Below are positions 51,443-53,303 of a stretch of DNA of 64,000 nt, piece after piece; the first letter of the stretch is position 1; every line of letters starts with the position of its first letter. The notes under the pieces are model-generated. The model worked only from the letters and a program-made list of their open reading frames with translations, was not told where the DNA came from and did no database searches. The position numbers and the translations under genes were made by a program. The stretch is from Promethearchaeota archaeon (GTDB taxonomy: Archaea > Asgardarchaeota > Lokiarchaeia > Sigyniarchaeales > SOKP01): positions 1 to 64,000 of the forward strand of contig JBHLPW010000021.1 in NCBI GenBank assembly GCA_048939015.1. Direction: 5' to 3'.

Positions 51443-51644
51443 TTAACATTTTAAAAAATGTAATCAAAGATGTGATGAATTTAAGGAGGAAAAAGAAAAA
51501 TCTCAATCGTGTGAAGATTGATGTTACTAAAAAAAATTCTGAAAATAAATTAGAAATTTGAGAATCAAAATTTTTATTTTTTTTAAAAATTAATTATGTT
51601 AATATAAAATAAAAAAAGGTGGAAGTAAAATCGCTGTTGTTTAT

Positions 51645-53303
51645 ATGCGAAAATTGGAATTAGAACCAGAGTCATATGATGAAAAATTCACAACCCTCAC
51701 TAAAGGAGTCAATATAGAAGTAAAAGATTGGATATTAGAAAGAATAAATTCAGATGAAAAAATCCTCGAAGTAGGTTGCGGTACGGGAAATCTTGCAGCA
51801 AGGATGGCGCTTAAAGGTAATGATGTTCTAGCAATAGATAAAAACCAGAGAATGATAACAACTGCAATGAAAAATTATCCTTCTAAATCAAACCTTAAAC
51901 TGTTATATCAAATAGGCAATATAGATGATCTATCTGTTGATGAGGGCTCTAAAGATCTCATAGTTAGTACTTTTTTACTTTCAGAACTTAGACCTTTTGA
52001 ACAACAAATTTTTCTAAGAAATGCATGGAAAGCTTTGAAACCAAATGGTCGAATGATTATTGCAGCTGAATTTGTGCCATCAGGCTTTTGGGATCTGTTG
52101 TTTAAAATAAAAAGATGGCGATATAAAAAGAAATTGAGAAGACTAAAAATAGAAAGTACATTTTTGGTAAAGTGGTTTTTTAATTATTTGGAACCTATTG
52201 GATTTAAAATTTCTTTAGTAAAGAAATGGCGACATGGATCGATTCAGGTAATAGAATTAGAAAAATTTAATGCTTTAGATAAACCTGGGTATTATAGACC
52301 TGAATTAAGAAAATATAAAGGTATTAGTGCCCAAATGAGTATTTACCGATGCATTTTTACTGGACAAACAGACCATGTACCGATTGAACCAGGAATTTAT
52401 CAATCTGGCAATCCTAATGAAAATTCTCCCATTATTGTTACTGCTAATTATGTTTATACATACATTAGGGTGATGCGTGCTCTCAAAGGATTAGATGCTT
52501 GGGTCTTATGCGTTGATTCTAGAGGAATAAACGTTTGGTGTGCTGCACGAGGAAATAATTTTGGAAATAAGCAAGTGATAGAAGCTGTTGAAGCTTCAGG
52601 TATAGTAAATATTACTAATAAAAAGACATTAATTGTACCACAACTGTCTGCAGGAGGAATAGCTGTACCATTAATAAAAGCTGAGGCCCCAAATTTTCCA
52701 TTTCATATTTTATATGGACCCGTTTGGGCTAAACATATTCCTAAATTCTTAGAGGAACGTCCTGCTCGAAAAACAGATGAAATGAAATTAGCAAAATTTA
52801 CAATTTCGCATCGTTTTCGAGCTGAAATTACACATACAACGTTCTTATTTCGCAAAATCTTCATATGGCCAAGTGTAGCCTTGATTTTACTATTTCTTGG
52901 ATTAAGTTTCATTAATACAATATGGTTAACAGAATTATTGATTGTAGGAGAGTTATGGCTCTGGATTATTATAGCAAACGCACTTATAGCATTATTATTC
53001 CCAATAGCGAACTTTACACGAAAATTTATCACAAAAGGAGTTGTATTTGGAATTATTAATATTTTAATATTCGTTGGAATTTCTTGGCTTTTTCATTACT
53101 CATTGGCAACAATTCTTCTAAATTTACCTTTTTACTTTTGGTTGGCTTTTTTTTCAACAATGTCGTTTAGTGGATACAGTATGGCTACTAGTCCAAGAGA
53201 AATCCAAGATGAATATCCAATCTTCAGTAAAATTAATATGATTTTATTGATAGTGGGCCTTGTAACTAAGGCTTTTGGTTTTATATTTTTTTTAATATTT
53301 TAG
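51645..53303 (+). CDS. Class I SAM methyltransferase fused to an HgcA-like corrinoid-binding and transmembrane protein (start may be ATC 51630)
   Basis: ILEVGCGTG, D.IVSTF.LSEL, LKPNG; then I.PG.Y..GNP...SP..VTANY, D.RGINVWCAA (Cys at 52539), PQLSA.G, GPV.A...P.FL; 4-5 C-terminal TM helices. Confidence 0.88.
   Translation: MRKLELEPESYDEKFTTLTKGVNIEVKDWILERINSDEKILEVGCGTGNLAARMALKGNDVLAIDKNQRMITTAMKNYPSKSNLKLLYQIGNIDDLSVDEGSKDLIVSTFLLSELRPFEQQIFLRNAWKALKPNGRMIIAAEFVPSGFWDLLFKIKRWRYKKKLRRLKIESTFLVKWFFNYLEPIGFKISLVKKWRHGSIQVIELEKFNALDKPGYYRPELRKYKGISAQMSIYRCIFTGQTDHVPIEPGIYQSGNPNENSPIIVTANYVYTYIRVMRALKGLDAWVLCVDSRGINVWCAARGNNFGNKQVIEAVEASGIVNITNKKTLIVPQLSAGGIAVPLIKAEAPNFPFHILYGPVWAKHIPKFLEERPARKTDEMKLAKFTISHRFRAEITHTTFLFRKIFIWPSVALILLFLGLSFINTIWLTELLIVGELWLWIIIANALIALLFPIANFTRKFITKGVVFGIINILIFVGISWLFHYSLATILLNLPFYFWLAFFSTMSFSGYSMATSPREIQDEYPIFSKINMILLIVGLVTKAFGFIFFLIF

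Follow-up and report, generated by a model that had tools for sequence, protein, structure and literature searches.

What is the role of a methyltransferase dependent on S-adenosylmethionine (SAM) when it is joined in one polypeptide with a corrinoid protein of the HgcA family? This question is raised by a gene on contig JBHLPW010000021.1 of a Promethearchaeota archaeon (GenBank assembly GCA_048939015.1), of which positions 1 to 64,000, designated here as the window, were analyzed (GC content ~30%). The gene, P0001, encodes a methyltransferase similar to CpaM ("corrinoid protein-associated methyltransferase") in its N-terminal part, and an HgcA-family protein with a corrinoid-binding domain and transmembrane (TM) helices in its C-terminal part. 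An earlier interpretation made from the nucleotide sequence alone, referred to as the sequence-only reading, took the gene for a Rosetta-stone fusion pointing to a dedicated methyltransferase from SAM to cob(I)alamin. This idea is well supported computationally, through the match to CpaM, a split pair of the two proteins encoded elsewhere in the same genome, triple fusions with a ferredoxin, a split shared by the trees of the two domains, and the prediction of a complex. The three-module HgcA-family membrane enzyme and the ferredoxin encoded downstream probably constitute a relay from SAM via cobalamin to an acceptor. The features of this system are listed below, with their coordinates in the window and the evidence in parentheses.

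51645..53303, + strand: fused gene P0001, CpaM-like SAM methyltransferase and HgcA-family corrinoid/TM protein (translation of the open reading frame, Pfam, NCBIfam, homologues, AlphaFold2)
51645..52265, + strand: class I SAM methyltransferase domain, residues 1-207 (Methyltransf_25/11/12, CpaM model, invariant columns, Foldseek)
51768-51788, + strand: motif I EVGCGTG, residues E42-G48 (translation)
52266..52385, + strand: linker, residues 208-247, with one helix at 226-238 (AlphaFold2 secondary structure)
52386..52787, + strand: HgcA-type corrinoid-binding Rossmann domain, residues 248-381, with EPG and TANY (266-269) (PF03599, partial matches to NF040863/NF043039, alignment with the corrinoid iron-sulfur protein, CFeSP)
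52524..52562, + strand: cap helix G294-INVWCAARGNNF-306, with Cys299 (translation, invariant columns, CFeSP alignment)
52803..53297, + strand: membrane domain with five TM helices, residues 387-551 (AlphaFold2, Foldseek)
53356..53661, + strand: HgcB-like 2x[4Fe-4S] ferredoxin P0002, 101 amino acids (aa) (translation, Fer4 families, NF040864)

Structure of the Fused Gene

P0001 is an uninterrupted open reading frame of 552 aa, and the same frame is open from position 51603. The start had been placed at 51630 in the sequence-only reading, which is 15 nt upstream of the first ATG, GTG or TTG codon; the start is corrected to 51645, and the remaining coordinates were right. The presence of the methyltransferase, the corrinoid domain and the TM helices in one frame was also read correctly: there is a single open reading frame, Pfam matches cover both domains, and five helices appear in the AlphaFold2 structure. 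The AlphaFold2 model of P0001, based on a 33-row alignment, has a predicted local distance difference test (pLDDT) value of 91.6 and a predicted template modeling (pTM) score of 0.87, and it is confident across the junction between the two parts. A GGTGG Shine-Dalgarno-like box is observed 23 nt upstream of the ATG of the fused gene. A scan for bacterial promoters and terminators showed no enrichment over shuffled sequences, where the models are bacterial and the host is an archaeon.

Methyltransferase Domain

The N-terminal domain is a class I Rossmann methyltransferase with EVGCGTG, as had been proposed: Methyltransf_25 matches residues 40-135 above its cut-off, Methyltransf_11 and Methyltransf_12 are likewise above their Pfam cut-offs, and residues 1-207 show a Rossmann fold in the AlphaFold2 model. 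In 33 fused homologues with identity down to 24%, L41, G44, G46, G48, D65, D104, E114, and E142 are invariant. The residues equivalent to the SAM-binding motifs of P0001 are invariant in the CpaM alignment, too.

When the protein was scored alone, residues 1-206 matched the CpaM model NF043040 with 133.4 bits, below the cut-off of 180. In a genome-wide scan with the same model, the P0001 domain was the second best match, with 142 bits over model positions 2-215 of 216. The best match, with 242 bits, is encoded by another contig of the same genome (C50), and every remaining methyltransferase scored 68.6 bits or less. In the phylogeny of methyltransferase domains, the P0001 domain groups with CpaM against the other methyltransferases of the genome, with a Shimodaira-Hasegawa-like approximate likelihood ratio test (SH-aLRT) value of 89. 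Judging from these comparisons, the N-terminal domain belongs to CpaM as a divergent member. The identity as CbiT or a corrin-ring methylase was considered and dropped, the match being weak (E 1e-5).

Corrinoid and Membrane Domains

The linker downstream of the methyltransferase domain is conserved among homologues. It is followed in the AlphaFold2 model by the corrinoid Rossmann domain at residues ~250-381 and by long helices at residues 387-420, 431-455, 461-483, 487-511, and 517-551, which settles at five the number of TM helices that had been estimated as four or five. The Pfam family PF03599 (CdhD) matches residues 230-336 above its cut-off, spanning Pfam positions 251-359 of 387. The nearest solved relatives by sequence are the C-terminal corrinoid domains of the CFeSP large subunits (2h9a/4c1n/9fzy; E 2e-9). 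Foldseek against the PDB returned 9a0b_A, a deposited computational model of HgcA, as the top match, and class I SAM methyltransferases as the next ones.

The cap helix at residues 294-306 reads GINVWCAARGNNF, and the translation confirms the sequence given earlier for it. N296, V297, W298, and C299 are invariant among the fused homologues. In the alignment with CFeSP, Cys299 corresponds to the Thr of the cap helix, and it is presumed to be the lower axial ligand of cobalt. The motif NVWCAARG is found in 120 of 120 close homologues; it does not match the canonical HgcA motif N(V/I)WCA(A/G)GK, which is represented by NVWCAAGK in the canonical representatives. The residue at position +3 after the cap-helix Cys distinguishes the clades described below: it is Arg in the NVWCAARG clade and Cys in the HgcAB-like proteins, and canonical HgcA has Gly there with Lys as the next residue.

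Position in the HgcA Family

P0001 scored 172.1 bits with the HgcA model NF040863, under the cut-off of 275, and the canonical representative P0159 scored 421 bits. With the HgcAB-like model NF043039, the score of P0001 was 181.2 bits, under the cut-off of 285, and the match covers model positions 14-250 of 350. A careful phylogenetic tree was constructed from the corrinoid and TM region, with 54 rows and CdhE as the outgroup. The HgcA family including P0001 was separated from CdhE with the support of 100/100; the corrinoid domain thus sits inside the HgcA family, and does not branch with CFeSP. Three clades were recovered in this tree: canonical HgcA (100/99), HgcAB-like proteins including the triple fusions (100/97), and the NVWCAARG group (95/85), which lies outside both the canonical HgcA clade and the HgcAB-like clade. 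The nearest neighbors of the canonical HgcA clade are P0141, P0152, and P0156, all fusions of a methyltransferase and an HgcA-like protein, with weak support (81-84), while P0140 belongs to the HgcAB-like clade. The HgcA-like identity suggested by the sequence-only reading therefore stands at the level of the family, but P0001 is below the HgcA cut-off and outside the canonical clade.

The backbone support of the careful tree is weak (80-88), and branching orders differ between quick trees. In the approximately unbiased (AU) test, a single group of the NVWCAARG clade and canonical HgcA was not rejected (p 0.66), and the tree constrained in this way was better than the quick free tree by 13 log-likelihood units. 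Because the quick trees disagree, the AU test is permissive and the backbone is weak, the clades are claimed here without their order or root. On the basis of the trees, the NVWCAARG group is a third lineage of the HgcA family. This placement is consistent with the report by Lin et al. 2023, whose tree has the Asgard sequences on its non-canonical side, and in which the first 327 alignment columns were trimmed (PMC10083202).

Ferredoxin Partner

The gene for the HgcB-like ferredoxin P0002 begins 52 nt downstream of the fused gene. P0002 contains two CxxCxxCxxxCP motifs, an additional GCGC (Cys80/Cys82), and CCG at the C-terminus, and scores 55.7 bits with the HgcB model NF040864, below the cut-off of 99. 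The sole canonical in-frame start codon of this gene is a GTG inside a GGTGG Shine-Dalgarno-like box (53340-53365), and it is taken here as a putative start.

The association of the two genes is conserved. At distant loci with identity down to 30%, an HgcB-like ferredoxin gene is situated directly downstream in 15 of 16 cases, and 12 of these 15 ferredoxins have a C-terminal vicinal Cys pair. The pair is seen in none of 12 HgcAB-like or triple-fusion proteins. The conserved unit at the distant loci consists of two genes, without a MeTr/MtrH-like partner. In the sequence-only reading, the altered residues after the cap-helix Cys were seen as a possible sign of an acceptor other than Hg. By analogy with HgcB, the C-terminal Cys pair of the ferredoxin points to a similarly thiophilic acceptor.

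Distribution and Other Architectures

More than 120 proteins of ~551 aa, showing 63-85% identity to P0001 at 95-100% coverage, were revealed by a word-indexed search of NCBI, JGI, ENA, and Logan assemblies. Their sources are labeled as Promethearchaeota, Lokiarchaeota, Hodarchaeota, Thorarchaeota, Hermodarchaeota, and Heimdallarchaeota, and their record names are only "methyltransferase domain-containing protein" or "UbiE". Nearly all genomes of the genus to which the window belongs have the full-length open frame, and single-contig genomes are among the carriers. Among 301 sampled Asgard genomes, 102 have a match at E <= 1e-40; the counts by family include 55 of 68, 22 of 76, 12 of 21, and 6 of 19.

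Contig C50 of the same genome encodes the two functions as a split pair (1360-3119). A 223-aa CpaM protein overlaps a 363-aa HgcAB-like fusion by 4 nt, and both score above the cut-offs of their models (242.8 bits against 180 for CpaM, and 374.9 bits against 285 for the HgcAB-like fusion). The cap helix of the latter is GINVWCGACGDDF, containing NVWCGACG, a CxxC. Such split pairs of CpaM and an HgcAB-like protein recur in related genomes. Membrane proteins resembling, by sequence, isoprenylcysteine carboxyl methyltransferase-type enzymes border the C50 pair on either side (1-204 and 2737-3354 in L003, where the pair itself lies at 773-2532).

An exhaustive search of representatives yielded four architectures: the fusion of a methyltransferase and an HgcA-like protein, the triple fusion which also includes HgcB, HgcAB-like proteins without a methyltransferase, and canonical HgcA with NVWCAAGK. 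The fusions of a methyltransferase and an HgcA-like protein were found from several Asgard lineages as well as from bacteria, namely Abyssubacteria (P0141) and Anaerolineae (P0282, a cluster mate of P0140). The triple fusions, composed of CpaM, an HgcA-like protein and 2x[4Fe-4S], are 582-644 aa in length and are represented by the metagenomic proteins P0145, P0147-P0149, P0154, P0155, P0162, and P0171. P0145 and P0154, the two that were scored, pass both the CpaM and the HgcAB-like cut-offs. Three of the eight triple fusions have a name on record; that of P0147, "HgcAB-like fusion protein", covers one domain, and that of P0162, "UbiE/ferredoxin", omits the HgcA-like part.

The phylogeny of the methyltransferase domains reflects that of their partners. 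The partners of corrinoid domains other than the HgcAB-like ones form one clade (SH-aLRT 95), and those attached or adjacent to HgcAB-like proteins constitute the rest, so that the methyltransferase and corrinoid trees share the same deep split. Therefore, the methyltransferases and their corrinoid partners are considered to have diversified together, with several events of fusion or fission.

Proposed Relay from SAM to the Acceptor

In the relay considered probable here, the HgcB-like [4Fe-4S] ferredoxin would reduce the corrinoid bound to the Rossmann domain to Co(I), with Cys299 of the cap helix beneath the cobalt. The CpaM-type domain would bind SAM and dock with the cleft for SAM above the corrinoid's open face, and methyl transfer would generate methyl-Co(III) and S-adenosylhomocysteine. 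The methyl group would then be passed to a thiophilic metal or metalloid at the membrane, probably presented by the Cys pair at the C-terminus of the ferredoxin. Hg(II) is a possible acceptor. The direction of methyl flow is inferred, and the contact between the methyltransferase and corrinoid domains is predicted from the modeled complex described next.

The split C50 pair together with SAM was predicted as a complex with a score of 0.62, the best of three controls being 0.00. Of 80 solved complexes, 58 attain the mark used for this score, as do 2 of 110 mismatched pairs, although this calibration is approximate for the present case (own alignments, riding ligand). The runs share at least 62% of contacts, and the pLDDT of the partner is at least 79. 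On the CpaM side, the predicted interface consists of residue 72, next to the ribose-binding Asp, and residues 99-104 and 125-131, all in the loops around the SAM site. On the corrinoid side, it consists of residues 23-25, 43, 66, and 84-93, which include EPx, TxN (whose Asn is that of the TANY-type motif), and residues flanking the cap helix. In this model, the SAM cleft faces the cap-helix side, a geometry that would be expected if the corrinoid were sandwiched between the two proteins; it was predicted for the paralogue, and not for P0001. Experiments have established SAM as the methyl donor of canonical HgcAB, acting via methyl-Co(III) with Cys ligation, and Cys73 and Cys94/95 of HgcB are reported as critical residues (Zheng et al. 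2024, PMC11588087).

Several points weigh against the relay. P0001 is under the curated cut-offs of HgcA, HgcAB-like and CpaM models alike. To our knowledge, no member of the NVWCAARG clade, CpaM or the HgcAB-like group has been characterized. Canonical HgcAB uses SAM without a methyltransferase domain, and a dedicated domain is thus not required chemically (PMC11588087). Furthermore, no Hg methylation was seen in culture for the HgcAB-like relatives of Pyrococcus furiosus or of M. methylutens (PMC4646819, PMC5893877).

Alternative Explanations

The alternative that survives best, possible but rather doubtful, is that the system is an archaeal mercury methylase, a functional orthologue of HgcAB, in which the acceptor is Hg(II) and RG in place of GK is neutral drift. 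This alternative bears on the acceptor alone and would be compatible with the loading of cobalamin from SAM. The cap-helix Cys, TANY, the five TM helices and the separate HgcB-like ferredoxin are all in line with it, and so is the AU test, which permits a clade with canonical HgcA. The ferredoxin has a Cys after the second cluster and the C-terminal CC, the residues critical in HgcB (PMC11588087), and Asgard archaea are listed among putative methylators (PMC12484752). However, P0001 reaches only 172 bits against the HgcA cut-off of 275 and is placed outside the canonical clade, itself supported by 100/99. The uniform presence of NVWCAARG in the 120 close homologues indicates a fixed change rather than a drifting one.

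It is unlikely that the SAM domain serves for reductive reactivation only, as does the activation domain of methionine synthase, by re-methylating oxidized Co(II), with another catalytic donor, for instance a methyl-pterin, or a corrinoid pathway derived from methylamine. The genome does encode CdhD/CdhE of the Wood-Ljungdahl pathway, and the combination of a ferredoxin with a SAM module is reminiscent of a reactivation set. Nevertheless, the conserved unit is limited to two genes and lacks the MeTr/MtrH-like partner, and diversification of the methyltransferase went in parallel with that of the corrinoid protein throughout the whole of the non-canonical family. In canonical HgcAB, SAM is the catalytic donor (PMC11588087).

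A direct, ArsM- or TehB-like action of the methyltransferase domain on a metalloid or small molecule, with the corrinoid domain as an independent or sequential module, is quite improbable. It is suggested by Pfam and NCBIfam matches to ArsM, TehB, and UbiE families, and by Foldseek, in which small-molecule and lipid methyltransferases are the best of the methyltransferase matches. The former matches are weak (E 1e-8 to 1e-12) and generic for class I enzymes, however, and are far under the CpaM score. In the interface predicted for the C50 pair, the methyltransferase has its substrate side against the face that binds the corrinoid, and fusion or adjacency to HgcA-family proteins is the rule across the family.

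An assembly chimera or a frameshifted pseudogene can practically be dismissed, as the same architecture is present in the more than 120 proteins from independent assemblies, with open frames in dozens of genomes including single-contig ones, a conserved linker and a confidently modeled junction.

Gene Neighborhood

The genes around the two-gene unit were considered as a clue to the acceptor and were set aside: the upstream neighbors are limited to the genus and therefore do not define the system. The genes for a MarR-family protein, a QueG-like Fe-S protein and an FMN reductase, all upstream, are conserved within the genus only. The first of them is as follows.

49023..49496, + strand: Cys-rich MarR-family regulator (Pfam MarR; three Cys pairs, CC near the N-terminus, CNC, and GCC)

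The MarR gene was found upstream of the fused gene in seven loci (L006-L009, L011, L014, and L040), and in no locus outside the genus. Based on its composition, the protein may be a thiol- or metal-sensing regulator, located outside the core unit.

QueG is a cobalamin-dependent epoxyqueuosine reductase. At 49629-50348 (+), a 239-aa Fe-S protein is encoded which corresponds to the central part of QueG only (59.6 bits against the cut-off of 200). It is a truncated QueG-like protein adjacent to a corrinoid system, and a homologue is also present close to one of the distant loci (L032). At 53698-54540 (-), downstream of the ferredoxin gene, lies the gene for a 280-aa protein with a weak match to gelsolin repeats, whose synteny is kept throughout the genus; this is probably one of the cytoskeletal signature proteins of Asgard archaea, with no relation to the system.

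Implications

A broader and more speculative proposal can be put forward. The HgcA family may have depended ancestrally on a class I methyltransferase, CpaM, for the loading of cobalamin from SAM; canonical HgcA would have lost it, and the Asgard NVWCAARG clade would actively methylate Hg or another soft metal(loid) by means of SAM. This proposal is made because the methyltransferase is fused or adjacent in every non-canonical lineage, and because every major branch, that of canonical HgcA among them, has methyltransferase-fused forms as neighbors. If it is true, the clade would be an unrecognized source of methyl-metal compounds in marine sediments, since it is present in about a third of the sampled Asgard genomes.

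The natural and conserved fusion, with its split and triple-fused paralogues, provides a concrete hypothesis for the use of SAM in the HgcA family that is testable by mutation. The NVWCAARG clade is common in Asgard archaea from marine sediments and keeps the Cys-pair tail of HgcB; if it methylates Hg or another metal(loid), inventories of environmental methylators are incomplete. Surveys of hgcA now demand NVWCAAGK and would pass over the clade. The architecture is also hidden behind the public names "methyltransferase domain-containing protein", "UbiE", "CpaM", and "HgcAB-like fusion protein". The trimming of the N-terminal alignment in one phylogenetic study removes the region where the methyltransferase domain would lie (PMC10083202).

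Comparison with Known Systems

Canonical HgcA/HgcB, the mercury methylation pair, is among the closest comparisons. The cap-helix Cys in NVWC, the corrinoid Rossmann domain, TANY and the five-helix membrane domain are shared, and so is the separate downstream 2x[4Fe-4S] ferredoxin with a C-terminal Cys pair. P0001 differs from canonical HgcA in the additional N-terminal methyltransferase of 207 aa, and in AARG instead of AAGK.

The HgcAB-like proteins with an adjacent CpaM, the "fused HgcAB" of the P. furiosus type, likewise combine an HgcA-family corrinoid/TM protein with a CpaM-type methyltransferase. In that system, the ferredoxin forms the C-terminal part of the fusion and has no CC tail, the methyltransferase usually has a gene of its own, and the cap helix conforms to the NVWC(G/A)AC type. 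In the P0001 system, in contrast, the methyltransferase is fused, and the ferredoxin is separate and has the CC tail. With CpaM itself (NF043040), the P0001 domain shares the intact class I SAM motifs and the genomic association with an HgcA-family protein, which is covalent in P0001, while its score is under the curated cut-off (133 against 180).

The large subunit of CFeSP (CdhE/AcsC, PF03599) has a homologous C-terminal corrinoid domain with an alignable cap helix. It is distinguished by Thr at the position of Cys299, an N-terminal [4Fe-4S] domain, a TIM barrel and the lack of a TM domain, and it receives the methyl group from methyl-H4folate via MeTr in the Wood-Ljungdahl pathway. The activation domain of MetH and the class B radical SAM enzymes including TsrM resemble P0001 in the proposed chemistry, in which Co(I) attacks SAM's methyl group and yields methyl-Co(III), but their SAM-binding folds are unrelated to the class I Rossmann methyltransferase. 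We know of no characterized class I methyltransferase with a protein-bound corrinoid as the substrate, without an exhaustive search for one.

A literature search found no paper on CpaM or on a fusion of a methyltransferase and HgcA, Haft & Gwadz 2023 and Smith et al. 2015 being outside its reach. The association of a methyltransferase with a corrinoid protein, which the sequence-only reading had regarded as novel, had already been recorded as CpaM by NCBI curators. The HgcA family and the fused HgcAB group were known before, and so was the CpaM association, in its case only through an NCBI "hypothetical equivalog" model. What appears to be new is a distinct and widespread Asgard lineage with a fused methyltransferase and a separate, Cys-tailed HgcB.

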